64,000 nt of DNA from contig OZ219788.1 of assembly GCA_964291285.2 (NCBI GenBank), forward strand, positions 1 through 64,000, read 5' to 3'. Both the position numbers and the translations under genes were made by a program. Below, piece after piece: positions 9,030-44,195 of this stretch; the stretch's first letter is position 1, and each line of letters starts with the position of its first letter. The stretch comes from Alphaproteobacteria bacterium (GTDB lineage: Bacteria; Pseudomonadota; Alphaproteobacteria; Bin95). The notes beneath the pieces were generated by a model. It worked only from the letters and a program-made list of their open reading frames with translations. It was not told the DNA's origin and made no database searches.

Positions 9030-9139
9030 GGTCCTGTGGACGGATTTGATCAAGATGAAGGCAGCGGCGAGTGCGACGAAGGAGCTGAAGTTTGTGGCGG
9101 TCTTTTCGCAGCGCAGGGCGATGCGTTTGAAGCGTTTGA
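9030..9139 (-). mobile_element. IS5 (IS427 group) 3' end: TIR and last ~35 codons of the transposase
   Basis: Minus strand encodes KRFKRIALRCEKTATNFSSFVALAAAFILIKSVHRT*; TIR GGTCCTGTGGACG follows TA at 9028-9029. Confidence 0.9.
9128..9139 (+). repeat. Left att core TGAAGCGTTTGA
   Basis: 11/12 match to 43419-43430; marks the end of IS5 homology. Confidence 0.85.
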
Positions 9140-9725
9140 TTTGAATGGCATGACGGATGATGGGTTGAATTAATACAGCAATTACAATCCATTACAGTGA
9201 GAACACAGGATATTTCCAGAAACGTATCAACACTATATCAGCACGACAGCCGGATCGTCGCGGAAAGCTGTGCGGGGAAGGCAACCCGCGGGTCTCATAA
9301 GGCTCGTGTTGCCCGGCGCCCCTCCAGCATTGAGAATGCGGACATGTGTCTCTGGAGCATTCATCCCGGGCATCTTGCCCCCGCGGGCTGGCCGTGCTGT
9401 GGAGGAGTTGTCACGCAATTCGGAAACCCTGCGCGGACGCTCGAACGACCGGCAACAGCCGGATTCCCGGCGCTGCTCAGGCCTGCGCTGCCGACAGGGC
9501 CGACGAACGGCTCCCTGAGCCGAACCGGGCCGTATGAACGGCGGATTGGCGGAAGGTTGGGTACCTCTGTCGGAATTGGGACTGCCGCAGCGCTTCTATG
9601 GCAAGGGTCGTCTCTTCGCTCGGCATGATCGGGACATGGAAAGTGTGGTATAGCATTTGCTATGTCGCACGAGATGGTCTAATCCTTGCGCCCCATGTAA
9701 TCGAGAAACGACGGTGCGACCGGGA

Positions 9726-10847
9726 ATGGGCGACATTCCGGAAGACTATCCACTCCGGGTCAAGGACTTGCGTGGGCGGTTGGGGCTTACGCAGGCGCAG
9801 ATGGCGGAGCGCGTCGGCGTGTCGTTCGCGACAGTGAACCGCTGGGAGAACAGCCAGTCCAGGCCCGGGCGCCTGGCGTGGCGCGGGATCGTCGATCTGG
9901 AAGCCGAGGTCCGGCACTTGACCCGGCCGGCCGAGCCGCCCGCCGCTTCGGCGACGCCAACACTCGACTTTGGCTCCGAGCCGGCAGCGGTGGCTGCCGT
10001 TGCGGCGGCGACGCGGCTCGCCTACGGCCACCTGTCCAACCCGGCTTTCGCCAGCGAGATATCCTCGATCGACCCGTTGCCGCACCAGCGTATCGCCGTC
10101 TACGAGCACATGATCGGCCAGTCTCCGCTGCGGTTTCTCCTTGCCGACGACGCCGGCGCCGGAAAGACGATCATGACGGGGCTGTATCTCCGCGAGATGC
10201 TCGTGCGCCGGCTGATAACCCGTGTGCTTGTGGCGGCGCCGGCCGGACTGGTGGGCAACTGGGAACGCGAGATGCGCATGCTGTTCCGCCTCCCCTTCCG
10301 CATCGTGCGCGGCACCGACGCCCGCGCCGGGAACCCGTTCGCCGGACCGGGGAGCGACCGCATCGTCGTCAGCATCGACACGCTTGTCGGCGAGCGCATG
10401 TTCGGGCGCCTTCGCGAGGCGATGGAATCGGGTGCCGCGCGTCCCTACGACCTCGTGGTGTTTGACGAGGCCCACAAGCTGGCCGCCGCCCGCGAGCAGG
10501 ATTTCCGAGTCCGCAAGACCGACCGCTACCGCCTCGCCGAAGCTCTGGCCGGCCTGCCCGTAGACTGTGCGCGCTGGCGCCTGGGCTGGTCGGCGCCGAA
10601 CATCCTGCTGCTGACCGCGACGCCGCACATGGGCAAGGATTTCCCCTACTACTGCCTGTGGCGCCTGCTCGCGCCGGACGCGCTGGCGACCTTCGAGGCG
10701 TTCGCGGACTTCCCCGAAGCGCAGCGCCGCCGCCACTTCATCCGCCGCACCAAGGAAGAGATGGTCCACGCCGACGGCCGACCCTTCTACCCGCAACGCA
10801 AGTGCGACGGCTTGGAACAATCTTGTCGTGGCCCGTCTTTGCAGTAA
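9726..10847 (+). pseudogene. XRE-HTH + SNF2-type helicase, truncated after the DEAH domain
   Basis: LGLTQAQMAERVGVSFATVNRWEN; LLADDAGAGKT, VFDEAHK and LLTATPH motifs. Homology appears to stop near 10808 with no HELICc domain. Confidence 0.85.
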
Positions 10848-11226
10848 CCAGGGCATGTAACCTTTATGCCGGCCGCAGGCTCCCTTCCCCCGGAACCCGC
10901 AGCCTATACACTGCTGTCACCGGCGTTTGTCTGGTTTGCCTGCCATGGCCCGCGCCATCGCCTTCCCGATGCATTCCACGGCGGCTTCGATCTCGCAGTC
11001 GACGAGATGGGCGAGCGCAATGTCATCCACACCGGTACCGCCGGCACCACGCCCGCCATGCGGCCCGGCAGCCATCTTGCCGATGGCAGGATGTCCGGCT
11101 GCCGGGCTGTCGGGCGCGGCGCGTGTTGAAACCGGCCTGCGGACGGGTTATGGGTTGCACCGGCGGGTTCGCTGCGGCCGTGCGGGCGCGGCGCAGGTTT
11201 GGAATTCGGGACGGGAGGATGAGGTC

Positions 11227-12440: not shown

Positions 12441-12583
12441 GTGCGATGTGCCGTTGGCTCCATTTCGACGGAGAGGATGACATCGAACCGAGGCCGACCG
12501 AGAGGATCCCTGAAGGAAGCGAAGCCCTCGGCAAGGCCACCGGGTCCGGAGAAAAGGTCGACAACTGGTACCGGATCGGCCAT
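12422..12583 (-). pseudogene. dcm: DNA cytosine-5 methyltransferase N-terminal fragment
   Basis: MADPVPVVDLFSGPGGLAEGF...LSVEMEPTAHRTL (motifs I-II only); divergent from vsr. Confidence 0.85.
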
Positions 12584-12846: not shown

Positions 12847-13335
12847 ATGACCGACATAGTCGATCGGGCGATCCGATCACGCATGATGGCAGGAATTGGC
12901 GGAAGGAACACGAAGCCGGAACTGATCCTCCGCCGCGCCCTGCACGCGCGCGGCCTCAGATATCGTCTTCACGACCGGAACCTCCCCGGGACGCCGGATC
13001 TGGTCTTTCGTCGGTTCGGCGCTGTCTGTTTCGTGCATGGCTGCTTCTGGCACCGTCATGAAGAATGCCCTCATGCTACCGATCCTGCGACTCGGAGGAA
13101 TTTCTGGCAAGAGAAGTTCAGGGCCAACGTGATGCGGGACCGCCGCGCCAGGGAAGCCCTGCTGGCGGCAAGGTGGCGGGTGGCAGTTGTTTGGGAATGC
13201 GCGTTGCGCGGCTCTCGTTCGCAGAGTACGGCAGCGGCCCTCCACCGGTGGCTTCATGGTACCGAACGCGAATTCGAGACGAACCTCGAACGCCATGGTG
13301 ACGACCCTCGCCAAGACCTTCGCGGCACCTTCTGA
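12847..13335 (+). CDS. vsr: Very-short-patch repair endonuclease
   Basis: MTDIVD...RSRMMAGI...NTKPEL...LPGTPD...FVHGCFWHRH...VVWEC. Confidence 0.93.
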   Translation: MTDIVDRAIRSRMMAGIGGRNTKPELILRRALHARGLRYRLHDRNLPGTPDLVFRRFGAVCFVHGCFWHRHEECPHATDPATRRNFWQEKFRANVMRDRRAREALLAARWRVAVVWECALRGSRSQSTAAALHRWLHGTEREFETNLERHGDDPRQDLRGTF

Positions 13336-13394
13336 TACCAACCGCGCCTAACCGACCTCGACTGCGCGCGACTGGTGCATTGGCCGCTACTGTC

Positions 13395-14396
13395 TCAGTG
13401 CCCGGACCTGGCCGCCAGCACTTCTTCGAGGCTCGACGCCACCAGCACCGCCTCCGCCCAAGCCTCCAGTTCGATGGCCGACGCGCCACGGACCCGCTCG
13501 CGGACCGCACCCGGCACATCACCGAAGCGCAACGCCAGTTGGCGAAGAAGAAGTTCTGCCAAGGCCTCTATCCGGCCTTCGCTCCGGCCCCGTTCGATTC
13601 CCTTCTCGATTCCTTCGGCTCTTCCCTTCTCGATCCCCTGTTCGATCCAGGCTTGCGCGACCGTTCCCATCAGCGCCTCCCAGCGGTCCGGCTTCGTCCG
13701 GCGCAGCGACGCCTCCAGCAATGGCGGCGTCAGGTTCATGCGCTCGGCAATGTAGCGCACAATATGACGCTCGAACGCGCTCCCCGCAACCGGCCCGCCC
13801 GTCATCTCGTCCAGAAGATCGGGCGGTATCTCCTCGGCATGGACGACCCTGAGCGCCAGAAGCCCGGCCCGCACCTCGGGCGAGGCCGACAGCCGGTGGG
13901 GCGCAATCTCCCCCAGATCGTGCACCACACAGGCAAACTCCCTGACGAACGGCTCCAGCTCCCCGGGTGCGTCGATCATCCCCGGCACCGAGAGTGGCGC
14001 CGTCCAGCGACCCCTGCCGTGGTAGAAGACCAGCGGGATGATCGCCGGCAGCCTGTCCCCGGCAGTGCCGTCCTCTATCTCGCGGCGCCAGATGTTGACC
14101 ATGTATTTCAGGAGCTGGAGCGGCGTGTCGGCATCGACGCGGCTCTTGTGTTCGAGGAGCACATAGAGGCGCGCATCGTGGCCGCTCCTCAGCCTGACCC
14201 GGAAGAGCGCATCGCACTGGGTCCGCGCGGCGTCCTCGTCGACGAAACTGCCCTCGACCGCCTCGGGCGGGGCCTCGGGGTCGAGGAGGGCGGCGACCTC
14301 TTGCGGCAGGTATTCCGCGAGCAGCGAAGCGGCGCGGGCCGGCTCGGAGACCAGCGCCCGGAACAGTGCATCGTGCGGCGTCGCCGGAAGGCTCAC
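13395..14396 (-). CDS. Rpn/YhgA-family PD-(D/E)XK nuclease with C-terminal EKG repeats
   Basis: PHDALFR, SFVD, CDALF, YVLLEHKS, LPAIIPLVFYHG; tail EQGIEKGRAEGIEKG...LRFG...LEAWAE. Confidence 0.9.
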   Translation of the reverse strand: MSLPATPHDALFRALVSEPARAASLLAEYLPQEVAALLDPEAPPEAVEGSFVDEDAARTQCDALFRVRLRSGHDARLYVLLEHKSRVDADTPLQLLKYMVNIWRREIEDGTAGDRLPAIIPLVFYHGRGRWTAPLSVPGMIDAPGELEPFVREFACVVHDLGEIAPHRLSASPEVRAGLLALRVVHAEEIPPDLLDEMTGGPVAGSAFERHIVRYIAERMNLTPPLLEASLRRTKPDRWEALMGTVAQAWIEQGIEKGRAEGIEKGIERGRSEGRIEALAELLLRQLALRFGDVPGAVRERVRGASAIELEAWAEAVLVASSLEEVLAARSGH

Positions 14397-14654
14397 CGGG
14401 AAAGACCTCCGGCATCGTCTCCGGGAGGCTCCCGACGGACAGTCTGCTCACCGGCCGGGAGAGGAAGGACATTCGACATGGCGGCACCCTATGCCGGACA
14501 ACATCGGCTCCGCAATCGCTGGCGCCTGTCCACGAGAATATCGGCGGCAATGCTGTCGGAGACGCGGACGGCCGACCCGTGCGGAGCGAAGGAACGAGGT
14601 TCCGTTCCCGGCATCGAAACCGGTGATGTTCGGCCGGAATCCTGACAACTGATA

Positions 14655-15890
14655 CCAAGCGCGGTTCGAATTGACTCATTGTTCCAACATGTTGTGTTGA
14701 GGTGAGGTGTTGAGGTGAGGTGCCGGACAACGTTGATAGAGTGATGTCAGGCAGTCTTGGGGTTGGAGGATGATGATGGGTGCGGCGACGCCGATAACCT
14801 GGACGGAGCATGGATCGGACGATCTCCATGATCTGGCGAAGCGCTGCGGTGAGGCGAAGCAAGCCTGTCGGGCTCGTGCGATCGCGATGATCATGGATGG
14901 GGCGTCGCGCACGGAGGCGGCGCGGGCGCAGGGCATGGAGCTTCAAGTTCTGCGCGACTGGGTGCTGCGCTACAATGCGGAGGGGTTCGAGGGGCTTGCG
15001 GATCGTCCTCGCGGGGGCAGCGATGGTCGGTTGACGGAGGCTCGGATTGCCGAGATCGGGTTGTGGGTCGAGGCGGGTCCCGATCTTGAGCGGGACGGTG
15101 TCACGCGCTGGCGGGTTCAGGACATCATACGGAAAATCGAGGAGGCCTTCGGGGTCATTTATACGGAGAGCGGCGCCCGTATGATGCTCCGAAGGGCCGG
15201 GTTTCGTTTTGTCTCGGGACGGCCGGTCCACCCCAGGGCCGACGCGGAGCGGCAGGGGGCGTTCGTGGCGGACTTCGAGGCAAGGGTGACGTCGATGCTC
15301 AGTTCCGAGGCGCTGGCGGGCCCGATCGAAATCTGGTTCCAGGACGAGGCGCGCATCGGCCAGAAAGGGATGACGACGCGCGTCTGGGCGCGCGGGAGGC
15401 AACGTCCGCGCATCGTGCGCGACCATCGCTATGGCTATGTCTATCTGTTCGGCGCCACCTGCGCACAGCGCGGCGTCGGCATCGCCCATGTGGCGGACAG
15501 GGCGAACACGGCGGCGATGAACGAGCATCTGGCGGCGATCGGCGCGGCCGTGGCGCCGGGTGCGCACGGCGTGGTCATACTGGACGGGGCAGGCTGGCAT
15601 CGCTCGGGCGACCTTCTCGTCCCCCCCCCAATCTGACGCTCCTGCATCTGCCGCCATACAGTCCGGAACTCAATCCCATGGAGCAGATCATACTGGTCCT
15701 GAAATCGAACCGCTTCGCCAACCGTGTGTTCAAGGATGTCGCCGCCCTGAGAGAAGCCTGCCGGACGGCATGGCAATGGCTCATCGAGCAACCCGACATC
15801 ATCACCAAAACAACCCGGCGAAGCTGGGCCGTCGCACCATCGTGACGATCCCCACGACCCAATACATCGGTCTATATGACTTGCGGTTGG
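14655..15890 (+). mobile_element. IS630-family element
   Basis: TA|CCAAGCGC ... GCGGTTGG|TA ends with TA duplication at 14653-14654 and 15891-15892. Confidence 0.8.
14770..15845 (+). pseudogene. IS630 transposase, frameshifted at a C9 run (15621-15629)
   Basis: HTH, WFQDEARIGQKG, ILDGAGWH; LPPYSPELNPME continues in another frame. Confidence 0.85.
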
Positions 15891-15978
15891 TATGACCCCC
15901 GGCACCGCGCACATCCCGGACGCACATCCCGGTTCCGTGAGACGGCAAGAGGAGGTGGCGAGGCTCGGCCTCCCATGC

Positions 15979-18900
15979 CTACAAGCCGAGGTCCATCTCG
16001 CGCCCCTTCGTCTTCGCCGGTGGTTCGGGTCCGGGCGCCTCGGGGCCGGCGGCGCGGTCCGGCGCCGCCTTCTCCCGGGCGACCTTTTCATTGCGCTCCC
16101 GGGCGGCTTCGGCTCGCCGGATGAGGGGGTCTTCCTGCCGGTCGCGGTTGCGTTCCCTGCCATCGGGCGCCGCTTCCCGGCCCGCCTCGCGCTCCCGGCG
16201 CAGCTCCTCGCCGATGCCCTCCAGCGCCGAGATGCGCTCGCCGGTAACCGCTTCGAGGCGTTCTTTCAGCGCCTGCGCGTCGTCGGTCACGAGCTCCGCC
16301 CGGTCGCGGGCGCGCGATATCTCGACATAGAACGCCCTGGCCGTGGTCAGCGTCGGGTGATTGGCCTCCATCGCCGCGATCACATTGTCGACCGTGCGGC
16401 CCTGGAAGGCATGCACGGTCGAGCACCAGGCATGGTCGAGATGGCGGAGTTGCGGCTCGCCCGGGGTGAGGGTGAGCCTGCGCCCGTCCTCCAGCCTGAA
16501 CGTCACCCGGCCGTTGCGGATGCCGAGCACTTCGGCATTGCCGCTGTTGACCAGTCCGAGGCCCTTGTCGTTGCGCGTCCAGCGGATGCGGTCGCCCGCG
16601 CGAAGCTCGATGCCCTCGCGGCGGTAGACCTCCGTTCCGCCCCGCCGTCCGCCGATTTCGGAGGGCTTCCAGGCGACGGTCCCGCCGCCCGGCGCTTCGA
16701 GCAGGACGGTTCCGTTCCTGCGTTCGACGCCGGCAACGCGGCGTTCCTCGCCCCTGGCGACGCCGAGCCGCTTGTAGGGGCGGTGGAAGGCGACGACATC
16801 GCCCGGCGCATAGTTGGCCGCGAGCGACTTCTCCGCACCGGTGTAGCCCTTCGAGACCAGACGCCCGGTCTCCATGGCGGGACCCGAGATACGGCCCTCG
16901 CGCACCAGGCGCTCCCGGATATGCGCGTTGATGGCCTCGCGCAGTTCGTGGCTCGGGGCCATCACCCCGGTGCGCCCGCGCTCGTCATGCGAGAGCTTCA
17001 GCCAGCGCGCCGCGACCGCGCCGGCGATGTTGTCGGCCTTCACCTCGGCGACATCGGAACCCAGCTTCCCGAAGGCCCGGGACATGTCGCCTGCGAGGCT
17101 CGCCTCGACGGCGGCCTTCAGGTCCGCGTCGCGCTGGCGCAGGATTTCGTCCATCACCGCCGTTTTCATGCCGGCGGCCTGAAGCTGGGCGAAGGGTTTG
17201 CCGGCATCGACCGCACCGAGCTGCTTCGCATCGCCCACCAGCACCAGCTTCGGCACGCGCAGCACACCCGCGATGCGGAGCAGGTCGCGCGCCTGGACGG
17301 TCGAGGCCAGCGAGCCCTCGTCGACCACCAGCACCGTCTTCGCGAACGCCGTGCGCATGTCTTTCGCGCCCTTCCCGGTCAGCCTGCCCCCGGCGACGCC
17401 CGCATTGCGCGCGAGGAAGCGTTGCAGGGTCTCCGAGGCGATGCCGGATTCCCGGCTCAGCGTATGCGCGGCCGAGGCCGAGGGCGCGAGCCCCATCATG
17501 CGCCAGCCCTTCTTCTCCGCCAGCGTCCTGGCGCGCGCGAGCATCTTCGTCTTCCCCGTGCCCGCATACCCCTGGACCCCCACCGTGCGATCCTTCTCCG
17601 ACAGGATGAGCCTGACCGCCTGTTTCTGCCCGGCGGTGAGCGGCCCCTTGCGCAGGTGGCGCTCGACCATCCAGCCCCGCATCGGCGCCTTGCCGCGCCG
17701 CTCCCCGCCGCGCATCAGCGCGACCGTCTCGCGCTCCTCGGCCACCGCCCTGTCGGTGGTCAATCCGCCGCCGCCCTCCAGCGCCGGCGCATCGTGCAGC
17801 CGGCCCGCGCGCTTGAGGCCGGCAACCGCCCGCTCGATAGCGCCGACGGACGCCGCGCCGGGATCGAAGGCGAGCGCGGCCGCGAGCAGGTCGGTGGTGG
17901 AGAACACCGCGTCGCGCTCCGAGAGATGGGCGAGCGCCCAGTCCACCGCCGCGCGCGCGGGGTCGGCCCGCGCGGCATGTTCGAACAGGTCCGGCTGGCG
18001 CGGCGGGAGAGGAGGACCGCCCTTGCCCGGTTCGGCGGCGCGCGCCTTCTCCGCCCCGTGGCGCTCCAACGCCGAGGCCGCCAGCCCCTTCGCGTCGAAG
18101 CCGAGCGCGGCGGCCTGCCCGGCCCAGGTCTCGCGCAGCGCCTCGCGGTCGACCTCGCGCCTGGCCGCGCGCGTCATCAGCGCCGCCCGCCGGGCCAGAT
18201 GCGGGTTCTCCCCCGTCGTGCCCAGCCCCCGGCCCTCCATCGCCGCCTCGATCTCCGCGCGCCGCGTGGAGAAGGCGTCGATGACCTCGCGCGAGACGCC
18301 GGCGATCTCGAACCGCCCGTCGGCGTGGGTCTTCCCTACAGTATAGCCGAGCTTCCCGAGTTCGCCGGCCAGCGCGTTGCGGTAGAGCGCCCCCAGCGCC
18401 ATCTTCGAGGCGTAGAGCCGCTCGTTGGCCATGGTGCGCCAGCGCCCGTCTTCGCCCTGCACCATGTTGGCGATCACCGAGTGCGTGTGCAGCGCGGGAT
18501 CGAGGTTCCGGGACGTATCGTGCCGGAACGTGGCGACCACCGTCTTCTGAGCGCCGGCCCGAACCATGCACCCGCCCGCCGGGTCCTGCATCCGGGTCTC
18601 GGCGGCGTTCCTCTCGAACCAGGCGAGCGCGCCCGCCACCGCGCGGTCGTGCGCCTCCACGATCCGCCCGTCGCCGCCGACCAGGGCGGCCAGGGACACG
18701 CTCTTCGGCGCGCTGAATGTGAGGTCCCGGCCGGGGCGGTGATGGATCTCGCCGTCCTTGCCGCGCTTGCCGAGGCGTTTGCCCGAGCCGTCCGGGACCT
18801 CGCCCTCCAGCACCGCGCGAAAGGTGTCCGGGGCCACCGGGCCTTCGAGCCCCAGCGCCGCCGCGCCCTTGCCCGCCCAAGCGCTCGCCGCACGATGCTC

Positions 18901-18987
18901 GTCGGACTCCTTCGCATAGTAGGAGTCCTTCTCGTAGTAGCTCACCCCCTGTGCGGGCGAGGCCACCGCGCCGATCGAGGCGACCAT
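15979..18987 (-). CDS. trwC: MobF relaxase-helicase (TrwC/TraI)
   Basis: N-terminal YY..D.YY, DLTFSAPKSVS, HDTSR..DP.LHTH (HUH), GYAGTGKT, VDEGSL, TVHAFQG and YVEISRAR motifs. Confidence 0.95.
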   Translation of the reverse strand: MVASIGAVASPAQGVSYYEKDSYYAKESDEHRAASAWAGKGAAALGLEGPVAPDTFRAVLEGEVPDGSGKRLGKRGKDGEIHHRPGRDLTFSAPKSVSLAALVGGDGRIVEAHDRAVAGALAWFERNAAETRMQDPAGGCMVRAGAQKTVVATFRHDTSRNLDPALHTHSVIANMVQGEDGRWRTMANERLYASKMALGALYRNALAGELGKLGYTVGKTHADGRFEIAGVSREVIDAFSTRRAEIEAAMEGRGLGTTGENPHLARRAALMTRAARREVDREALRETWAGQAAALGFDAKGLAASALERHGAEKARAAEPGKGGPPLPPRQPDLFEHAARADPARAAVDWALAHLSERDAVFSTTDLLAAALAFDPGAASVGAIERAVAGLKRAGRLHDAPALEGGGGLTTDRAVAEERETVALMRGGERRGKAPMRGWMVERHLRKGPLTAGQKQAVRLILSEKDRTVGVQGYAGTGKTKMLARARTLAEKKGWRMMGLAPSASAAHTLSRESGIASETLQRFLARNAGVAGGRLTGKGAKDMRTAFAKTVLVVDEGSLASTVQARDLLRIAGVLRVPKLVLVGDAKQLGAVDAGKPFAQLQAAGMKTAVMDEILRQRDADLKAAVEASLAGDMSRAFGKLGSDVAEVKADNIAGAVAARWLKLSHDERGRTGVMAPSHELREAINAHIRERLVREGRISGPAMETGRLVSKGYTGAEKSLAANYAPGDVVAFHRPYKRLGVARGEERRVAGVERRNGTVLLEAPGGGTVAWKPSEIGGRRGGTEVYRREGIELRAGDRIRWTRNDKGLGLVNSGNAEVLGIRNGRVTFRLEDGRRLTLTPGEPQLRHLDHAWCSTVHAFQGRTVDNVIAAMEANHPTLTTARAFYVEISRARDRAELVTDDAQALKERLEAVTGERISALEGIGEELRREREAGREAAPDGRERNRDRQEDPLIRRAEAARERNEKVAREKAAPDRAAGPEAPGPEPPAKTKGREMDLGL

Positions 18988-20006: not shown

Positions 20007-20399
20007 TCAGCTCGTGCGGTCGAGAAACGCGCGTGGCGACAATATCCCGACCGGCCCGTAGCGCGGCTCCGTGAAGTCCCGCACATTGCCGGTGATCAGG
20101 ATCGCGCCGCCGGCCGCGGCGGTCGCCAGATAAACCTCGTCGTCGGGGTCGCGCAGGCCGAATGCGAGGTCCGCCGGCTCGACCGTGACCGCCAGACGCG
20201 CGATCTCCCGGATGACCAATTCCAGGGTTTCGCGGCAGGACGCTTGGGCGGGCCGAGCGGCAACCGTTTCGTATTCCGACAGGATGGGCGCGGACGGGAC
20301 GAGCTCGTGATCCCGCATCACCCTGTCGATCGCTTCGCGGCACGCGCCGTCGGTTCGCGCCGCCGCCACCACGACATTGCAATCCAGCACGACCTTCAT
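20007..20399 (-). CDS. PIN-domain toxin
   Basis: MKVVLDCNVVV...RDPDDEVYLATA...LITGN.RDF. Confidence 0.9.
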   Translation of the reverse strand: MKVVLDCNVVVAAARTDGACREAIDRVMRDHELVPSAPILSEYETVAARPAQASCRETLELVIREIARLAVTVEPADLAFGLRDPDDEVYLATAAAGGAILITGNVRDFTEPRYGPVGILSPRAFLDRTS

Positions 20400-32135: not shown

Positions 32136-32299
32136 TCTTGTGGGCGTAGAGGGTTTCGTCTGCGCGCAGGAGCGTGGTCCGGATTCTCCGCCGGAGGACC
32201 GTCGCGCTCTGGCGCGGGCATCGGTCCTGGCGCTGTTCGCGCATGAAGGAGCGGGTCGGATCGGGGCAGACACGTCGCTGGCGCTTGCCCGGTTTTCCC

Positions 32300-32772
32300 G
32301 CCATGGGCTGCGCCATCATTTCCTCGACCCTTTCTGCCGCCGCCTCGATGCCGCGATCGTGGTGTGCTCCCGGTTCGTCGAGATGCTGAAACCGGTCGAG
32401 TGCAACATTGCCGCCCTCGATTGGGGCCAAGCGATGCTGCACGGGTCGACGAATGACTGCGCCGTCCGGTTCGAGGCCTTCCAGTCCGGCGACCTGCCGC
32501 TCTTCCTTGTCGGTCTCGGGGCCGGCGGCACGAGCGTCAGCCTGACCGCTGCCGACACGGTGACCGTCTGCGATCCGTGGTGGAACCGGGCGGTGGAGCG
32601 CCAGGCCATGGACCGGGCGCACCGGATCGGCCAGGACAAGCCGGTGTTCGTGCACCGGCTGATCGCGAAGGCCAACGTCGAGGCCGTCATCCATCGGATG
32701 CAGGCGCGCAAGCAGGCGCTCGCTGACGCGCTGTTCGGACCGGCGCAACCGGGTTCCCGTGTCGGTCCATGA
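32300..32772 (+). pseudogene. Degenerate SNF2 helicase C-terminal fragment
   Basis: AGGTSVSLTAADTV..DPWWNRAVERQAMDRAHRIGQDKPVFVHRLI. Confidence 0.75.
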
Positions 32773-35890: not shown

Positions 35891-36783
35891 GTTGCTGCTC
35901 CTTTTCGACCGCGCCGGGGACCGGCGCGGGTCGAGGCCGTGCCCGGATCCCGATCCGCCCGGCCCGTTTTCGGCCAGGAACCCGCGCAATCGTCGAGGCT
36001 GTCGCGGCCCTCCACCGCCTCCCGGCCGACGGTATCGACGAGCCCCCGGAGAGGGTGGAGAGCGCGCCGCGACCGCGGTCGCGGCGGGCGATCCGGCCGA
36101 TTCCGGCGGCTACCATTCGGCTACCGAGCGTATTGCATCGCCATGCGCCAGGCAATCGGGCGATACACGGGCGGGCAGCGACCGTCGTCAGGGGCTGTCA
36201 GGGGCGGCCAAGCGTACCGGTACTGATGTAGTACCGGGCGGCATGCGCTCGGTCCGCAATGCTCCGGTCATCTCCAATCGTCGTCAGGAGTGCCGGAGCG
36301 CCCCCAGGGCATTCCATGGCAGGTTCTGGCGGGCCTTGCAGCCTGCTGCGTTCCGGTGTGACGAAATAGCGGCTCCGCCGTCGAGACAGAGCCGGAAGGG
36401 ATAGCATACACGATGGGGAAATCGACGCCGGGGAACCCGGCGGAGGGGAGCCGCCGCGGCGTGTGAGCGGACGGCCTCGCCGGCGCGAGCGCGGGCACTG
36501 GTGCGAAGCACCGTGCCGAGCGGACGGGCGGCAGCGCCGGCAGTGCCGTCGACAGTCACGCTGGCGGAAGTGCGCCGGGATCGGCGCGGACGGCGATGCA
36601 CCCGGGCGAAGCATGGTGCAGCGGCGCGTGACGCGGACGCGGAACGCAAGCGCGATCGGCGAAGCCGGAGCACGAGTGCGGCGCGAAGCGCGCGAGGTTG
36701 GCGTTGCCGCGTCATCGATGTGCGAAAGAGGAAACGGACCGTGCCGCAGCCGGAGCGACGACACGGCCCGCGATGCGTTGCGG

Positions 36784-37710
36784 TCAGGCTGCTACCTTCA
36801 TCACCGGGATGCCGAGCTGCTTCGCCTTGTCGACGAGGTTCTCGGTGATGCCGGAGCCGGGGAAGGCGATGACGCCCTTCGGCAGGAGGTTGAGCAGTTC
36901 GTCGTTGCGGCGGAAGGGTGCGGCGCGACCGTGGCGGTCCCAGTCGGGCTTGCAGACGACCTGGTGGACGCCGTTGCGCTCGGCCCGGCTTGCGGCGATC
37001 TTCTCGACGCCGGGGCCGCCGCCATGCACGAGCACGAGGTCGGCATACTTGGCGCGGGCCTTGTCGAGCCTGGCGATCACCGCGGCCGGGTCGGCGACGT
37101 CCTTTCCGCCTGCGATGGCGACGAGGGTGCCCTGCGGCAGGTGCGCCATGGTCGCGCGGTCCTTTCGGGCACGGACGAAGTCGCGGGCGTCGATGGCGGC
37201 GCTGGTGAGCGTGCCGGTCTGGCTGGCGTGGCTGCCGTGCCGGGGCCGCCACATGTCGCCGGTCTCTTCGCGGTAGGCGTGCGCGGCGGTGTTGCGCATC
37301 TTCTCGAAGGCGTCGCGCCGGTCTCCGAGGTTCTGCGCGCGGTCGGTGACGAGCTCCAGGTCGCGGGACTTGATCTCGGAGCCGTCCTGCTCGCGCTGGA
37401 GGTCGCGCAGGTCCGGGCTGAGCCGGTCGACGCTGCGGTCGAGGCGGCGGCTCTGGGCGTGGAGCATGTTGACGAAGCCCCAGAGCAGGCTCTCGCGTTC
37501 GTCGGCGAGCTGGGTGCCGTCGGGGCAGGCGCCTTCGGCGAGGATGCGGAAGGCCTCGCCGATTGCGGTCAGCGCATCGTCCTCGTCCCAGACCTCGCGT
37601 GGGTCGAGTTCGTCGCGCTCGGGGGTTGCGCCGAAGAGGGCGGCGTTGTCGCAGACGATCGCGGTTGCGGACTGTGCTGCGGTTTCGGTGGTATCGGTAT
37701 GGAAGGTCAT
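36784..37710 (-). CDS. DUF2493 (YspA/SLOG-like) protein typical of alphaproteobacterial plasmids/ICEs
   Basis: LLWGFVNMLH, GDMWRPRHGS, VAIAGG, LVHGGGPG.E.IA, GRAAPFRRNDELL and IAFPGSGITENL motifs. Confidence 0.85.
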   Translation of the reverse strand: MTFHTDTTETAAQSATAIVCDNAALFGATPERDELDPREVWDEDDALTAIGEAFRILAEGACPDGTQLADERESLLWGFVNMLHAQSRRLDRSVDRLSPDLRDLQREQDGSEIKSRDLELVTDRAQNLGDRRDAFEKMRNTAAHAYREETGDMWRPRHGSHASQTGTLTSAAIDARDFVRARKDRATMAHLPQGTLVAIAGGKDVADPAAVIARLDKARAKYADLVLVHGGGPGVEKIAASRAERNGVHQVVCKPDWDRHGRAAPFRRNDELLNLLPKGVIAFPGSGITENLVDKAKQLGIPVMKVAA

Positions 37711-37791
37711 GTCGTTTTCCTTTCGGTTTTCACGTTCGGGGCCGATCCCCGTTGTGATGTCCTGTCGGGGCACGCGCGCGCAGCAGAAGCA

Positions 37792-37912
37792 CCCGGGCGT
37801 AGAAGCTCTTGGGGCGGAGTGGTGCGGAAAGTCGGCGATGGTGCGGAAGATCGCCCTGCGATCTTCACGGTCGTCGACTTTCACGGTCCGCCCTTGGAGC
37901 TTCTTGCCCGGG
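37792..37912. promoter_or_regulatory. ~120-nt imperfect hairpin upstream of DUF2493 (candidate ssDNA promoter or sso)
   Basis: Nested pairings CCCGGGC/GCCCGGG, AGAAGCTC/GAGCTTCT, GGGCGGA/TCCGCCC, GAAAGTCG/CGACTTTC and AAGATCGC/GCGATCTT. Confidence 0.55.
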
Positions 37913-38083
37913 CCGCAGGGAGCGGAGCGACCGGAGGACCCCGCAGGGGTTGCTGTCGCGAGCACGTGTGACACGATTGGAGATCACAGCGGGGTGGCGT
38001 ATTTCTCTCGCCCTGCACGGACCCCATCGTCGTTTCGGCCCGGCACGGCGCCGGAGCGGGAGGCGCCGTTGCCCGCCCTTGCG

Positions 38084-38311
38084 TCAGTTCCACAGGGGAT
38101 GGGAGTCGACCCGCTGCCGGGCGGTCTCGCGGATGCGGGTGCGGTCGTGGAGATAGACGGGGCCGCGCGGGTCCTCGTCGAGATGTATGGCGAACACCCT
38201 GCGCCCCGGCCGGGTGCTGTCGTCGAAGGCGTGGACGTCGCCGACATGGTCGCCGTCCCGGTAGATGCGGGATTCGTCGGGGGCGATGCGGCGGAAGGAG
38301 ATGGTGCTCAT
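38084..38311 (-). CDS. Small hypothetical protein (75 aa)
   Basis: MSTISFRRIAPDESRIYRDGDHVGDV...; GGAG RBS; co-oriented with ssb and DUF2493. Confidence 0.6.
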   Translation of the reverse strand: MSTISFRRIAPDESRIYRDGDHVGDVHAFDDSTRPGRRVFAIHLDEDPRGPVYLHDRTRIRETARQRVDSHPLWN

Positions 38312-38492
38312 CGGGTTCTCCGGGTAGCGTGACGGGTGCGCGAGCGGGCTCCCTCTCCTCCTCGCGCGGTTCACCCGCTTTCCAGCCTCGCTCCCACTCC
38401 CGTATGCGCCGCGGCGAGACTCGAACCTGCCCGCATGAGAAAAGGGCCGACGCGCGAGGCGCCGACCCTGTGGGGGGGAAGAACGGGAAGCT

Positions 38493-38918
38493 CTAGAACA
38501 GGATCTGATCCCCATCCATCGGGTCGCCGCCCGCCGCGTCCGGGCCGGGCTGCGCGGCGTTGCCGTTCGCCTTGTCGAGGAACTGCACGCGCCCACCCGG
38601 GACCAGCAGGATCTCGGTCGAGAAGCGGTCGGAGTCCTCGCCCGGCTTCGACCAGCGCCGGGTCTGGAGCTTGCCGTCGATGTAGACGAGCCGGCCCTTG
38701 GTGGCGTGCTTCCCGAGCATGTCGATCAGCCCGTCCTGGAAGGTCACGACCCGGTGCCACTCGGTCCTGTCGACCTTCTCGCCGGTCTGCTTGTTGATGA
38801 ACGACTCGTCGGTCGCGATGCTCAGGTTGGCGACGCGCCCGCCCGAGGCGAGGTGGTTGACGGTGACGTCCGCGCCGAGGCGGCCGATGATCTGCACCTT
38901 GTTCAGTCCGAAGCTCAT
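38493..38918 (-). CDS. ssb: Single-stranded DNA-binding protein
   Basis: LNKVQIIGRLG...SIAT...TEWHRVV...KGRLVYIDGKLQTR; acidic tail. Confidence 0.95.
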   Translation of the reverse strand: MSFGLNKVQIIGRLGADVTVNHLASGGRVANLSIATDESFINKQTGEKVDRTEWHRVVTFQDGLIDMLGKHATKGRLVYIDGKLQTRRWSKPGEDSDRFSTEILLVPGGRVQFLDKANGNAAQPGPDAAGGDPMDGDQILF

Positions 38919-39419
38919 TGCGATACTCCTTCAGGTTCGCGTTGATGACGATGGGTTGCGAACGACCGGGGCCGGGGTCACTCCCCCGAACCCCCGCCCG
39001 TTCAATCTCTTCAGGCCCTCCTCTACCCCTGACCGCCCGGAGAGAACGACGACGCCGGTTCCGGGAAGAGGCTCGCGAAGCCGTGCACCGGACAGGCTGC
39101 GCCCCGGTCGGGACAGCGGATGGCGCGCTCGTCCCCGGCGATCTCGCGGACGGTGCGACGGTCGACGCCGAGTTCGGCGAGCAGGTCGCAGCCGGTCGGG
39201 AGGTCGAGGGATGTATCGGGATGAAACATGGCGGGAACTCCTCTGCCGTTGTCCTGCCCGGCGACCTGTGCCGGACATCGATCCGGCATCGGCGGGGAGT
39301 CCTCTCCTCCGCCCTGCCGGACACTCGCCCGGCAGGCGCTTTACTCCTCTCCACGACACAGGGACGGCGCGGCGGATCGCGGCCAGGCGAGCGCCGCCAT
39401 CGCCGCCCGGGACAGCATG

Positions 39420-40442
39420 TCAGGTCCAGGCGGTGAAGGAGGCGGTGACGGGGGCGTCGGCGACGATCTCGACGCGGTTGCGGTCGAGCTTCCCGAAGGC
39501 GAGGCAGAGGGCGACATCGGCCGGATCGTCGAACGGACCGTGCTCGCGGCCGGTCCCCAGTTCGATCACGGTCCAGACCGGCTCGTGGACCGGGATGCCC
39601 CTGAAATGCGCCGAGCCGTGATACGACCTCTCGGCACAGGGCGCACAGCGCGCCGCCCCCTGTGACGGCGCCCCGCAGGCCGTGCACAGGCCGGCGGCCC
39701 GGCGTCGGGCGTACAACTGCCGCGAGCGCGCGTTCTTGCGCTCCGGGTCGTGGCTGGCCTCCTCGATGGCGGCACACGCAGCGCAGCGCGACAGACCGTC
39801 ATGGACGGCGGCGCCGCACCGGGTGCAGAGCCCGGCCCGGCGCCGGTCCCGGTATTGCCGCCGTTCCGCCGCCTGCCTCCTGTCCCGGCAGGGCTGGCAG
39901 GTGGTTCCGCCCCCGGCAGGGGGCTGCCTGCCGCAGCGGATACAGAGTCCCGTCTTGATCCGGGCTTTCTGGCGGCGCTTGCTCTTCGCCCGGGCGGCGC
40001 GCCTTTTGGCTTCGGCATCGGCCCCGCCATACTTGAGGCCGGCGGCTTTCCCGGCGGCGTATTTCGCGCGGTCGGCTGCCCGGCGCTTCTCCAGGCACGG
40101 CTCGCAGGACGCACGGCCATCGGCGGCCGGCTGCTTGCCGCACCGGATGCAGAGCCCGGCGTCGCGGCGCATTTCAGCCTCGCGGCGGGACCGGTCGCGC
40201 TCCTGGGCGCGGGCCTTGTCGGGGTCTCTCCGGGGGAGGCCGGCGGTGCGCAGCCTTGCGTCCCTGGCCCGGCTCGCCCGGTTCCGCTTCTCGCCGCAGG
40301 ACGCGCACAGGGTCCGCGCGGGCTCGGGTTTGCGCTTGCCGCACCCGATGCACTTGCCGCGCGCGCGCCGGTCGGCAACCCGACGACGCCAGCGCTCCAG
40401 GTTCCGCGCGCGCCGCGCCCCGATGTCCTGCTGCTCGCACAT
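39420..40442 (-). CDS. Arg-rich protein with five CxxC-x9-11-CxxC zinc-finger-like repeats
   Basis: CIGC..CASC, CIRC..CEPC, CIRC..CQPC, CTRC..CAAC, CTAC..CAPC; AAGGAG RBS before ATG 40442. Confidence 0.75.
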   Translation of the reverse strand: MCEQQDIGARRARNLERWRRRVADRRARGKCIGCGKRKPEPARTLCASCGEKRNRASRARDARLRTAGLPRRDPDKARAQERDRSRREAEMRRDAGLCIRCGKQPAADGRASCEPCLEKRRAADRAKYAAGKAAGLKYGGADAEAKRRAARAKSKRRQKARIKTGLCIRCGRQPPAGGGTTCQPCRDRRQAAERRQYRDRRRAGLCTRCGAAVHDGLSRCAACAAIEEASHDPERKNARSRQLYARRRAAGLCTACGAPSQGAARCAPCAERSYHGSAHFRGIPVHEPVWTVIELGTGREHGPFDDPADVALCLAFGKLDRNRVEIVADAPVTASFTAWT

Positions 40443-40529
40443 GGGAGCGTTCTCCTTGCCGTGGGGAAAACGGAAGAGGGACGCCCGGCCGACCCGGGTG
40501 GGCCGGCCGGACATCCCTCGGGAAAGCGC

Positions 40530-40862
40530 TCAGCCGCGCTGCTTGCGGTCGCACAGGAGGCCCGCCGCAACCGAACCCCAGGCCTGTTTCCCGCCGCGGG
40601 TGCGAAGGCCGGTGCAGATGATGATCTCGGTGCGCTCCGGGCGCATCGCCTCGGCTTCCTTGCGCGAGACCACGGTGCGCCTGACCTTGCGCCGCCCCTT
40701 CGCGTTCTCCTCGCCGTCCCGGACCGGACGAATGTCGCCGCAGGCCAGGGCGCGGAACCGCTCGACCACGAAGCGGTCGTCGCCGTCGAGGCCGCCGCCG
40801 AAATAGTGGACCAGGAACGTGCTCGCCGTATTGCCGGGCATCGCCATCGTTGCTGCCGTCAT
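40530..40862 (-). CDS. Hypothetical protein
   Basis: Globular-looking sequence with GGAG upstream, in the same orientation as its neighbours. Confidence 0.5.
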   Translation of the reverse strand: MTAATMAMPGNTASTFLVHYFGGGLDGDDRFVVERFRALACGDIRPVRDGEENAKGRRKVRRTVVSRKEAEAMRPERTEIIICTGLRTRGGKQAWGSVAAGLLCDRKQRG

Positions 40863-41113
40863 GCTGCCGTCTCCATCGTGCCGTGGTGGAACCCGGCGGC
40901 AGCGCCCCGCTCTCCGAAGCGCCGACCGCCGCCCCGCTCACGGCCAGACCTTCCCTCCTGCCGGCGCGGAGCGGGGGAGGCGGCGTTCCCGACGGCGGGC
41001 GGCGGGCCGGCGGCACGGGTGACCGGTAGCTGGAGAGCACCCTGGCCATGGCCACACCGGCACGTTCGGGCTGCAATCGACCAGCGCACACGCGATGCGC
41101 TCACCGGTTGTAG

Positions 41114-41526
41114 GTGACAGGAAGGACCACGAAAACGGGGCAACGCGCAGGAAGGACGGCGCGCCCGGGTGGCGGGACGGGAAAGCGCGGCGGGAGCCTC
41201 GACCGTTTGCTCCGCCATCTCGACGACGCGGACCTCGACCGGCCGGTCGAAGCGGCGACAGCCGAGGCCCGCAGGCGCGGGCGGCAGGCCGGCAAGACAT
41301 CCGGAGGAAGGGCGCGCGCCAGGCCGGTGACGCAGGGGCAGGAAAAGCCGATCCTCGCCGCCTTCGAGGCCGGCCTCAGGCCGGCGGCGATCGCGCGGGA
41401 GTTCCGCGTCTCGCGCGCCCGGGTCGACGCGACGCGCTGTCTACGGGGACAGCTTCGGGCCGGTTCCGCCTCTCGCGCGCCCGGGTCGACGGCGTGCTGG
41501 CCGGCACCGGACAAGGCCGCCGGTGA
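41114..41526 (+). pseudogene. Small HTH protein disrupted by an internal duplication
   Basis: QEKPILAAFEAGLRPAAIAREFRVSRARVD; TCTCGCGCGCCCGGGTCGAC is repeated at ~41409 and ~41471. Confidence 0.5.
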
Positions 41527-41643
41527 GCGGGAGGCTCACGGCCACGACGCCATCCGCCGCCCGGTCTCCCGCACCCGCGACCCGATGGACCTCTACATCG
41601 TCGCCTTGCGAGGCTCGCACCGGTATATCCCCAGATAGGCCGG

Positions 41644-41972
41644 CGCACCAACGCCGGCATGACGCCGCTCAACGCCGTGCTCCGCTACCGGGAGCTGCTC
41701 ACGGTGGAAGACCTGTTCCGCCGGGCGAAGGCCCAGTTGCGCACCCGACCGATCTACCACTCCTGCGACGCCGCGATCCGCGGCCACGTCTTCTGCTCCT
41801 TCCTCGCGCTGGTCCTCCAGAAGGAACTGGCCGACCGATGCGCCGCCGCCGGCGTCAGCATCGAATGGCACGACCTGATCCGCGACCTCGACCTCCTGCA
41901 AGAGGCCACCATCGAGAAGCACGGCAAGCGCATCACCACCCGCACCCATGTCGAGGGCCCGGGAAAGGTCCA
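41644..41972 (+). mobile_element. IS1634 3' fragment
   Basis: Near-identical to ~2717-3045 (TNAGMTPLNAVLRYRELL...THVEG). Confidence 0.85.
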
Positions 41973-41976
41973 CGCG

Positions 41977-43245
41977 TCATGCTGTCGGCGGCAAGGCCGG
42001 TGGCGCGGGAATGCCTTCGCGGATCAATGCGTCGATCCTGTCAGAGATGCGCTGGGCGGCGTCGCGGAGTTGCTCCATGGTCCAGTCGGCGGCATAGCCC
42101 TCGGTCACGTCCCGGGGCCGGGCGTGGTTGACCAGCCGCTTGGTCAGGCTGGCCGGCAACATCAGGTCGCGGTCGGCGACGGTGATGAAGCAGTTGCGCA
42201 GGGCATGGAACCAGAATTTCGCGCCGCCCGCCTCGCCGATGCGCGCATTCATGTGCTGCATGCCGGTGAGACGCCCGGACCTGCTGGTTTCGGACGGGAA
42301 CACCCAGCCCCGGTTCGCCTCGGGGACACGGTCGCGTTCGGCCAGGCGGCGTTCGAGAATGGCCGCGAGCTGCCGGGTGACGGGAAGCGCCAACGGCGCG
42401 CCGGTCTTGGTGTCCTCGACCCGGAACACCATCGCCGCCCTGTCCACCCGCGCCCATGCGAGGCCGAATACTTCGGCCCGGCGCATGCCGGTATAGAGGC
42501 CGAAGTGCAAGGCGTCGCGGGCGACCGGGTTACGCACCGCCGCCTCGATGCCGCGGTGCCAGCGCGGCAGCACCTCGGCCGGCGGCTGGATGATGCGCCG
42601 TTTCGGGCGATGGGGCCGCCCGCCCGCGACGCGCCACTGGTCCACCGGATTGTGCAGCCCCTCATGGTCGAGGCACTGGCGGCGGTAGAGGGCGCGCAGC
42701 ATCTTCATCGCATTGTTGGCCTGCACCCACCCGGCATTCTCGCTCAGGCGCCGGAAGCGCTGCTCGACATCGCGGCGCCCGATGGTGTCGAGAGGGCGGT
42801 CGAGCCAGTCACCGAGGTCCTTGTGGACGGTGCTGCGGTATACCGCAACGGTACTGTCCTTGCGCGCCGGCCCGGCGGCGAGATAGTCCTCGAAGGCGTC
42901 CCGCACCGTCGGCATGGCGCGGGCGCGGGTGCGCCCGGCGGCGGGGTCCTCGCCGGCGGCGACGCGGCCCAGCGTCTCCCGGGCGAGGCGCCTGGCCTGT
43001 TCGGGGGTGATGCGGCCGTGGCGGCCGAGGACGAGGCGCCGGTTGGCGGCCTTGCGCCCGCCGTCGCCGGCGCGGTAGTTGACGATGTAGGAGCGCATGC
43101 CCGAGGGCTGGACGCGGATACCGAATCCGGTGAGGCGGTCGTCCCATGCGATGAAGGGTTTGTGCCGGGGCTTGAGGGCTTCGACGTTTCGCTTGTTGAG
43201 GGTGAGCTTGAGGTTTGCAGTGCGCTTGCCGGTCTGTGTTGACAT
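41977..43245 (-). CDS. P4-like tyrosine integrase with arm-binding domain
   Basis: N-terminal WD..LTGFGIRV.PSG...LGRHG.ITPEQAR; catalytic R (TGMRRAE), K (DTKTG), HxxR (HALR), H (LVNH) and Y (TEGY) all present. Confidence 0.93.
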   Translation of the reverse strand: MSTQTGKRTANLKLTLNKRNVEALKPRHKPFIAWDDRLTGFGIRVQPSGMRSYIVNYRAGDGGRKAANRRLVLGRHGRITPEQARRLARETLGRVAAGEDPAAGRTRARAMPTVRDAFEDYLAAGPARKDSTVAVYRSTVHKDLGDWLDRPLDTIGRRDVEQRFRRLSENAGWVQANNAMKMLRALYRRQCLDHEGLHNPVDQWRVAGGRPHRPKRRIIQPPAEVLPRWHRGIEAAVRNPVARDALHFGLYTGMRRAEVFGLAWARVDRAAMVFRVEDTKTGAPLALPVTRQLAAILERRLAERDRVPEANRGWVFPSETSRSGRLTGMQHMNARIGEAGGAKFWFHALRNCFITVADRDLMLPASLTKRLVNHARPRDVTEGYAADWTMEQLRDAAQRISDRIDALIREGIPAPPALPPTA

Positions 43246-43418
43246 AGTGATATTCCTTCGAAACAGCCCTGAATATCACCATACAGGTCAACACATGAAA
43301 GTCAACCGGGGCGTAGTCCTGGCGCGCCTTGTCCACCGGGAAAACCAATACTTCATTGATACACAACGATTTCCTTTGACATCAGTTGCCACGAACAGAC
43401 AGGCGTACGGTGGAATAC

Positions 43419-43430
43419 TGAAACGTTTGA
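43419..43430 (+). repeat. Right att core TGAAACGTTTGA
   Basis: Matches 9128-9139; IS5 homology begins here. Confidence 0.85.
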
Positions 43431-44195
43431 GCTTGCCGACGGCCTGTTCGATGCGCGCCCGTCCTCTGTAGAGCGCGCTTGCGAAGCGCTTTGGCCTGTT
43501 TTTGATGTTCTTCCGGTAGGGAATGACGGTCAGGGCGCCTCTTTTCCGGGCGAGTTGGCGGTTTCCGGCGCTGTCATAGCCCTTGTCGGCGACGATGGCG
43601 CGGGGCCGGACATCGGGGCCGATGTCCATCAGGGTCTCGAAATGCGGACTGTCGGCAGCCTCGCCGCCGGTCAGGTCGAAGGCGATCGGCAGGCCGTCGA
43701 AATCGGTCTTCAGGTGGATCTTGGTGCTGAAACCGCCCCGCGAGCGTCCAAGCGCCTGACCCTGCTGCCCCCTTTTGCGCCGGCCGCCGATACATGCGCG
43801 CGGGTCACGGTCGAATCGAACATCTGAACCAGGTGCGCCGTGCTGCTCAAATCCGCCAGCGTGGCGAAAAAGTCCTCGAACACCCCTGAACGGCTCAGAC
43901 GGTGAAAACGCCGCCATACCGTATTCCAGTGCCCGAACCGCTCCGGCAGCGCCCGCCAGGTGATGTTGTGAACCGCAAAGAAGTGCAGCGCCTCCAGAAA
44001 CAGACGGTCGTCCTTCGCCTTCGCACCCCGCCTCGGAAGGCAAAGCCGGAAAACCTCCAGCGCAACCTCCCAGTCTCCATTCGTCATCTTCGTCGACATC
44101 AAAGAAACCCCCGAATCGCCGACGCCTCATGATTCAGACAAATCCTCGCACGGGAATCCCTGAACACGCTCCTGAGTCAATACGTCCACAGGGCC
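43431..44195 (-). mobile_element. IS5 (IS427 group) 5' part: orfA and orfB up to KLKRF
   Basis: orfA 44102-43710 (WRALPERFGHWNTVWRRF, FDST), slippery AAAAGGGGG, orfB GRSRGGFSTKIH, ADKGYDS, YRGRARIEQ. TIR GGCCCTGTGGACG ends at 44195, followed by TA. Confidence 0.92.

Follow-up and report, generated by a model that had tools for sequence, protein, structure and literature searches.

The stretch of DNA analyzed here, which we call the window, is the first 64,000 bp of one contig (C4:1-64000) in the 6.1 Mb genome of an Alphaproteobacteria bacterium (G000; 68% G+C, 5 contigs, no N). In the window, an 875-bp insertion sequence (IS) of the IS5 family is split by 34.3 kb into two pieces, 9030-9139 and 43431-44195, both on the minus strand, and the intervening DNA, hereafter the island, carries an integrase gene (int) next to its right end. 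We consider it very likely that the island belongs to a family of integrative mobilizable elements (IMEs) whose integrase repeatedly integrates at a site in this multicopy IS. The evidence that can be read directly from the assembly consists of the split IS, 16 identical junctions, the base pattern across them, the intact integrase, the attachment arms shared between copies and the gene content. The features that carry the argument are listed below, where attL and attR are the left and right junctions and attP and attB the attachment sites of the element and of its target.

9030..9139, minus strand: 3' part of the IS, 110 bp, with the last 33 orfB codons and a terminal inverted repeat; the 12-bp core is included
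9128..9139: attL core, TGAAGCGTTTGA; position 5 is G (the attB-type base)
9140..9268: P' arm of attP, AT-rich, 129 bp
41977..43245, minus strand: int, an intact P4-like tyrosine integrase gene of 422 aa, starting 173 nt inside the right repeat
43246..43418: P arm of attP, 173 bp, with conserved GTGTTGAC motifs
43419..43430: attR core, TGAAACGTTTGA; position 5 is A (the attP-type base), and the perfect palindrome AAACGTTT lies within it
43431..44195, minus strand: 5' part of the IS, 765 bp, with orfA and with orfB as far as ...GKLKRF

A multicopy insertion sequence is split by the island

The two pieces add up to the length of an intact genomic copy (110 + 765 = 875 bp), and the piece at 9030-9139 is 100% identical to the corresponding part of intact copies, of which the genome holds 17 at full length plus 1 truncated. 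The terminal inverted repeats read GGTCCTGTGGACG and GGCCCTGTGGACG, and TA flanks each outer end. A preliminary description of this DNA had reported the split at these positions, and both pieces, the inverted repeats, the TA ends and the sum of 875 bp were confirmed; the intact copies for which it had suggested a search are present in the genome. Its distance of about 175 bp between the right repeat and an intact integrase also agrees with the 173 nt measured for the open reading frame at 41977-43245. The pieces are bounded on the island side by the junction repeat TGAA(G/A)CGTTTGA, present as TGAAGCGTTTGA at 9128-9139 and as TGAAACGTTTGA at 43419-43430.

The IS encodes its transposase in two different frames, orfA (DUF4096, PF13340; 62.2 bits) and orfB (DDE_Tnp_1, PF01609; 58.5 bits), and the second frame of an intact copy reads ...RIEQAVGKLKRFKRIALRCEKTATNF...KSVHRT. 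The truncated transposase of the window scores 102.2 bits against NCBIfam transpos_IS5_3, for which the cut-off is 110. Among plasmids, the nearest matches of the IS are genes of Agrobacterium and Allorhizobium annotated as 'IS5/IS1182 family transposase', at about 72% DNA identity. TA flanks the ends of the 17 full-length copies and of every junction half, reflecting a 2-bp TA duplication at a YTAR target. The stop codon had been placed within the IS, directly after KSVHRT; instead, in all copies it lies outside, where the duplicated TA and the YTAR base after it form TAG or TAA.

The transposase is interrupted after ...GKLKRF and loses its last 33 codons. At attR its frame continues 143 nt into the island (43288-43430), adding a foreign tail of 43 aa. 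The break falls two codons beyond the K of what we take to be the Y(2)R(3)E(6)K motif of IS5-family transposases, and the truncated protein keeps those residues. The proposal that the transposase is switched off during integration and restored afterwards holds at the level of the DNA, as excision would rebuild the IS; it is weakened by the retention of the presumed YREK residues in the truncated protein and by the failure to find an excised form. As a separate observation, the truncated transposase frame is co-oriented with int, and read-through from the IS promoter could reach int once the element is integrated.

The IS copy targeted in the window has a history of its own. The 3' end of a tRNA-Met(CAT) gene, CCCCCGCTACCA, lies at 44198-44247, 36 bp right of the IS. 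A related genome has a whole tRNA-Met(CAT) gene at that place, whereas here the whole gene is found at C4:731086-731206 in the opposite orientation. The fragment resembles the boundary of an older island integrated at the tRNA, together with an inversion. Since it lies 36 bp from this marker of an older island's edge, the targeted IS copy itself sat in mobile DNA.

Sixteen junctions at one nucleotide

The 12-bp core was scanned on both strands of the whole genome, and the IS halves and the 34.3-kb insert were also compared with the genome by BLAST. The core occurs 35 times: at 18 uninterrupted IS sites (of which 17 belong to full-length copies), in 1 diverged relative of the IS, at 9 attL and at 7 attR, with no occurrence in an attP. 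Every attL consists of the 3' part of the IS, the core and then TTTGAATGGC..., and every attR of ...GGAATAC, the core and the 5' part of the IS, so that all 16 junctions fall at the identical IS nucleotide. The sequence left of attL, the core and the sequence right of attR, taken together, are exactly the sequence of the 18 uninterrupted sites. The rejoined IS is therefore a real IS sequence and not a chance frame, in agreement with the preliminary description, which had joined the halves through the direct repeat. Its further suggestion of an attachment site within a multicopy IS, offering many dispensable sites, is borne out by 16 identical junctions beside 18 free sites; about 30% of the IS copies in the genome are already occupied.

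At core position 5, G is found in 18/18 free sites and in 9/9 attL, and A in 7/7 attR. This is the pattern expected for reciprocal exchange right of that base, within CGTTTGA, the seven bases that had been put forward as the recombinase overlap. We propose that the integrase would recombine an attP of about 315 bp (the 173-bp P arm, the core TGAAACGTTTGA and the 129-bp P' arm) with the 12-bp site in the IS, which lies near the 3' end of the transposase gene and spans its L-K-R-F-K codons. Strand exchange within the seven identical bases would leave the G of the IS in attL and the A of the element in attR, and at least 7 different IS sites, spread across all five contigs, would be occupied in this way. 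As the IS is multicopy, it would provide the element with many neutral landing sites.

The junctions lie in diverse surroundings. The 40 bp outside the IS differ at 7/7 attR and at 8/9 attL, and the attR flanks differ from the first base beyond TA. Compared over 1.5 kb, the attL outer flanks include two pairs of segmental duplicates (window and C5; C2:1420389 and C3:2199529), which leaves 7 contexts. Four attR-attL pairs are correctly oriented, enclosing 34.3 kb (window), 35.9 kb (C1), 39.3 kb (C2) and 59.4 kb (C3); the remaining junctions, 3 attR and 5 attL, are orphans. The IS halves on the attR side represent 4 haplotypes among seven junctions. Their variable bases vary among the intact copies too, and 2 of the 4 combinations are found intact. 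The IS half and int are identical between the attR of the window and the one at C4:230249.

The window shares part of its history with a decayed sibling on C5. Its left outer flank at 7900-8895 holds a truncated LysR gene and the 3' end of a porin gene and matches C5:359921-360916 at 100% identity; at the C5 attL the IS end lies 134 bp nearer to this shared flank than in the window. The arrangement points to a segmental duplication followed by a deletion beside the IS. The C5 sibling also shares the truncated helicase and the module order of the window copy. We considered that the window copy might be a recent chimera of two elements; the C5 sibling suggests that its arrangement predates a duplication.

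The orphan attR at C1:785153 deserves separate mention. Its IS directly adjoins the TrwB coupling-protein and TrwC relaxase genes of another element (C1:778586-785154), and it is possible that here an island landed in an IS inside a potential helper.

The integrase and its attachment arms

The integrase combines an Arm-DNA-bind_3 domain (PF13356; 56.7 bits, cut-off 27, residues 16-107) with a Phage_integrase domain (PF00589; 45.1 bits, cut-off 27.1). R255, K280, H347, R350, H374 and Y384, which we presume to be the catalytic residues, are invariant in an alignment of 11 homologs. No relative with a solved structure was found by sequence. The genome carries 7 copies of the integrase with 100% identical protein sequences, and core, P arm and int together are at least 99.7% identical in all of them (0-7 differences in about 2050 nt), falling into two nearly identical groups. 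A sigma-70-like promoter is predicted for int at 43305-43278, within the P arm.

The attP core matches the IS site at 11/12 bases. The P arm is homologous to that of relatives with other targets (integrase 77-93% identical), and this homology runs from int to the core and ends there. On the opposite side, two unrelated types of island left end share just the core and the 129-bp arm (141 bp, 92-98% identity) and then diverge, a pattern suggesting that the 129-bp stretch behaves as a functional attP arm. Left ends of type 1, found at three loci (C1, C2, C3), end in a UvrD-like gene, while those of type 2, found at six loci (the window and five others), begin with a gene for a helicase with helix-turn-helix (HTH) and SNF2 domains; in three of them its product has 1184 aa, whereas the window and C5 hold a truncated gene of 396 aa. 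Between the C2 and C3 copies, the int end (7.6 kb, 98.9%) and the end from relaxase to attL (about 10 kb, 96-97%) are both conserved around different middles, which indicates that the element is a discrete unit bounded by two sites. We had also entertained that the islands might be older than the IS copies, given 3% versus 0.5% divergence. This idea was dropped, as the first 2 kb (core, P arm and int) are as uniform as the IS.

Genes for transfer and establishment

The window copy carries a MobF (TrwC-type) relaxase-helicase gene at 15979..18987 on the minus strand (1002 aa; MobF NF041492 282.9 bits, cut-off 100; TrwC PF08751 280.7 bits). A TrwC/MobF relaxase-helicase is carried by the paired copies too, and the C2 copy also has NikA-like genes. 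The search for mating-pore and coupling-protein genes covered three families: PF02534 and PF10412 have matches elsewhere in the genome but none in the window or in the three other paired islands, and PF03135 matches nowhere in the genome. TrwB-type coupling proteins are encoded at C1:73-74 kb and C1:778-780 kb. With a MobF relaxase, single-stranded DNA-binding protein (SSB) and establishment genes, and no coupling protein found in these searches, the elements should depend on a helper conjugative system, and we read them as integrative mobilizable elements.

The integrase-proximal genes form a conserved module next to attR, about 97% identical across all seven copies:

36347..43430, minus strand: integrase-proximal conserved module, 7.1 kb, also present in 6 further copies
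36784-37974: YspA/SLOG gene of the module
38493-38918: SSB gene
39023-39289: orf88
39420-40514: zinc-ribbon gene, orf364
40530-40862: orf110
41977-43245: int

More than 20 further genomic copies of the orf110, zinc-ribbon, orf88, SSB and YspA genes occur as a module without this integrase, which implies a very heavy load of remnants of conjugative and mobilizable elements. Every one of the 7 integrase copies is found at the IS rather than at an ssb or tRNA gene, despite dozens of ssb modules in the genome.

Alternative explanations

Several observations, set out in this and the following two paragraphs, weigh against repeated integration into the IS. The integrase has relatives that use other targets. 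Homologs with 58-86% identity were found in 6 of 60 related genomes, and 11 more integrase loci with 60-93% identity came from 185,579 species representatives. The preliminary description had proposed testing whether element boundaries of such homologs also fall at KLKRF of IS427-group transposases; this was not the case, as the IS or its transposase lay beside the integrase at 0/23 loci (1.5-kb flanks) and 0/11 loci (6-kb flanks). At four loci with 77-86% identity (L002 in G007, L003/L016 in G011, L032 and L041), the integrase adjoins an ssb gene at its residue 2, and this ssb shares about 80% identity with the island SSB; the next gene in L041 is a YspA gene. The same ssb is occupied at about codon 72 by a second integrase (58% identical) in L003/L016 and L032, and the ssb of conjugative-element establishment modules looks like a hotspot for two integrase lineages. 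Four further loci, with 61-63% identity, have a 48-57-nt 3' fragment of tRNA-Met(CAT) about 180 nt away (4/8 loci examined), and other relatives lie elsewhere. From these positions, the integrase clade appears to have changed target repeatedly, its nearest members also hitting mobile-element genes. Sites resembling the IS attB (27 nt, at most 2 mismatches) are present in 5/36 other genomes of the family and the P' arm pattern in 0/36, while no integrase relative was found among PLSDB plasmids at E <= 1e-50.

The circular junction and the empty site, for both of which the preliminary description had suggested a search, were not found, the former in the assembly, among the listed ends of run contigs or in metagenome contigs and the latter in relatives. 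No attP or circular form is among the 35 core occurrences of the assembly. Three public runs of one study, available as contigs only, hold the integrase region and were compared over 41500-45500; among the loose ends listed in these contigs, which drop rare forms, none continues as an island left end, and one loose end at 43419 continues as intact IS. Exact-pattern scans of metagenome contigs for core plus P' arm and for P arm plus core gave no match. For the empty site, both outer flanks of the window and C2 copies were sought in 16 other genomes of the genus, and no genome had them side by side; in G007, the one complete relative with both flanks, 0.8-1.1 Mb separate them. Consequently, it could not be shown that both IS halves of a copy stem from a single IS insertion. 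Around the C1 and C3 copies, the flanks consist of multicopy elements and are unsuited to such a comparison.

The structure of the copies adds further points. No excisionase gene was identified, and the counts of attL (9) and attR (7) are unequal. As core, P arm and int are near-identical, the copies must be recent and could in part be duplications. In addition, the interior of the window copy is a mosaic, with at least 4 IS copies or fragments, a truncated helicase gene and a relaxase gene inverted relative to other copies.

We regard as unlikely, overall, a history in which a single ancestral integration was followed by spread of the IS::island compound through transposase acting in trans, segmental duplication and homologous recombination. 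Such a history would fit the IS ends with TA flanks and intact inverted repeats that bracket every paired copy, the near-identity of int and P arm in all copies (complete over IS half and int between the window attR and C4:230249), the two attL pairs that are clear segmental duplicates, themselves a further point against independent integrations, and the heavy rearrangement of the genome visible in the unequal junction counts and in a tRNA gene inverted relative to its fragment. It does not sit well with four IS haplotypes adjoining seven near-identical integrase regions, with two unrelated left ends that meet the IS at the same nucleotide while sharing only the 141-bp arm, or with seven attR flanks that differ from the first base beyond TA, and it would still require one genuine integration into the IS. 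To our knowledge, there is also no example of a 34-59 kb transposition by a small IS5-family element. More generally, a fixed internal IS nucleotide cut 16 times with complementary halves is not expected of any transposase-mediated process.

A one-off event at a secondary site, with tRNA-Met or ssb as the real target of the integrase and chance copying of the insertion afterwards, would explain why relatives with 58-93% identity are at the IS in 0/34 loci, those with 77-86% identity being at ssb and those with 61-63% at the tRNA-Met fragment. We hold it to be very improbable, given that 7/7 integrase copies are at the IS and none at ssb or tRNA genes though dozens of ssb modules are present, and that the attP core matches the IS site in 11/12 bases. 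Homologs located at other genes had been named as the outcome that would reduce the case to such a one-off; they do lie elsewhere, and the replicates within the genome nevertheless exclude this reading. As relatives are never at the IS and in-genome replicates exclude a one-off, the IS targeting is best described as lineage-specific retargeting. Mis-joined repeats, placing IS halves beside island ends during assembly, are conceivable in so extremely repeat-rich a genome, yet 5 contigs without N, 16 structurally identical junctions with complementary halves and a consistent base pattern make an artefact hardly credible. Moreover, contigs from two public runs, which may derive from the source sample of this assembly, are short and span the attR junction. 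We thus return to repeated integration into the multicopy IS and infer that this integrase carries out the reaction, that successive integrations produced the copies and that excision and transfer of the elements still occur.

Relation to known elements and significance

The island resembles P4-like (CP4-57-type) tRNA islands in its PF13356 arm domain and tyrosine recombinase core, in the position of int beside att and in its short direct repeat, and distant members of the integrase clade (61-63%) adjoin a tRNA-Met 3' fragment as well. Unlike those islands, which target a single-copy tRNA gene, it uses a coding stretch of a multicopy IS, for which reason one genome can hold many island copies. 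IMEs are typically described at tRNA genes, housekeeping genes or genes of conjugative elements, and are not known to use an IS. Group II introns often sit in IS or transposase genes and are, similarly, mobile elements harmlessly housed in other mobile DNA. In contrast to the island, they move by retrohoming, differ in size, and restore by splicing only the RNA and not the DNA.

Parallels are also found among the helper-embedded PICIs, which target genes of other mobile elements; PMC10111431 notes that PICI EcCIDi14 lies in the transposase gene of an IS110 and emphasizes the ability of integrases to target other mobile elements. As in the window, an integrative element there splits a mobile-element gene and would restore it on excision (PMC10111431). 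PICIs are phage satellites with a single IS case, whereas the family described here consists of relaxase-bearing islands at no fewer than 7 IS loci in one genome. With IMEs (reviewed in PMC5704250), the islands share an integrase together with a relaxase, cargo genes and the lack of mating-pore and coupling-protein genes in the searches made here. In full-text literature searches we found no island family with a multicopy IS as regular attB or with many copies per genome; TIGER/Islander target lists might hold further IS targets. The splitting of mobile-element genes by integrative elements is thus already known, and the use of a multicopy IS as regular attB appears to be new, as we found no description of it.

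Site-specific elements are normally limited to one or few copies per genome by a single-copy attachment gene. A multicopy, dispensable IS as attB escapes this limit, and here 7 integrase-bearing copies and 9 left ends coexist with 18 free sites. The expansion of an IS is in this way directly linked to island load, to the spread of defense systems and to replicon rearrangement. The clade also offers a natural example of rapid retargeting by one group of integrases (tRNA-Met, then ssb, then IS), useful for studying the evolution of integrase specificity and for tools that insert DNA at repeated safe sites. Tentatively, and with somewhat less than even confidence, we picture the lineage as a specialist hyperparasite of mobile DNA that was retargeted from ssb codon 2, used by its nearest relatives, to a multicopy IS, where its copy number can rise with IS bursts; the islands would spread defense cargo (Cas9, restriction-modification, abortive infection) across replicons and leave long repeats that drive rearrangement. 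Intact IS copies might also move a whole island in trans as a giant transposon, both inverted repeats being kept.

Cargo and other features of the island copies

The island cargo appears, from the predicted gene products, to be largely defense-like (anti-phage). For example, the C1 copy carries Cas9 and Cas1 genes (C1:152885-156973, equal to L056:15486-19574) and a type III restriction-modification pair (L057:4669-12016). The defense-like genes of the window copy are those for the AIPR/MzaE-like protein, RecD2, the DpdE-like helicase fragment, Vsr, the PIN-domain protein and the truncated SNF2 helicase. The remaining genes of the window copy are as follows.

9657..10847, plus strand: truncated HTH and SNF2-type helicase gene, 396 aa here and 1184 aa in three other copies
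12847..13335, plus strand: Vsr-type mismatch endonuclease gene, cargo
13395..14396, minus strand: YhgA-like (Transposase_31) gene
14648..15893, plus strand: inserted multicopy IS with HTH and DDE_3 transposase
20007..20399, minus strand: PIN-domain gene, cargo
20637..22577, plus strand: inserted 1.94-kb multicopy IS (DUF772 and DDE_Tnp_1), copy 1
25599..27737, plus strand: fibronectin-III repeat protein gene, cargo; related fragments at 11367-12662 and 27644-29191
28752..30692, minus strand: inserted 1.94-kb multicopy IS, copy 2, inverted relative to copy 1
30744..32135, plus strand: AIPR abortive-infection-type gene (MzaE- or AbiU-like)
32140..32772, plus strand: helicase C-terminal fragment, DpdE C-terminus-like
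32759..35035, plus strand: RecD2-type SF1B helicase gene (TIGR01448, 866 bits, cut-off 500)

The SNF2-type helicase resembles the defense helicases HmaA, BrxH and DrmD. The IS load of the window copy comprises the two inverted 1.94-kb IS, an IS630-like element and an IS fragment between int and orf110, and its relaxase gene has the opposite orientation relative to int from that in the three other paired copies. The copy is probably impaired as a mobilizable unit; with int and both att sites intact, it may still excise.

A few minor repeats were observed in addition. The fragment between int and orf110 is 331 bp long (41643-41970) and derives from a multicopy DDE-transposase element, of which a full copy encoding a 563-aa protein lies outside the island at 1410-3101 and about 17 copies exist genome-wide. 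At 23609-23735, a 13-bp unit (ATCCGGTGCGTAT or a variant) is repeated about 10 times in tandem. Finally, a 210-bp repeat at 24068-24277 has about 40 genomic copies, often in adjacent pairs, and looks like a miniature mobile element.

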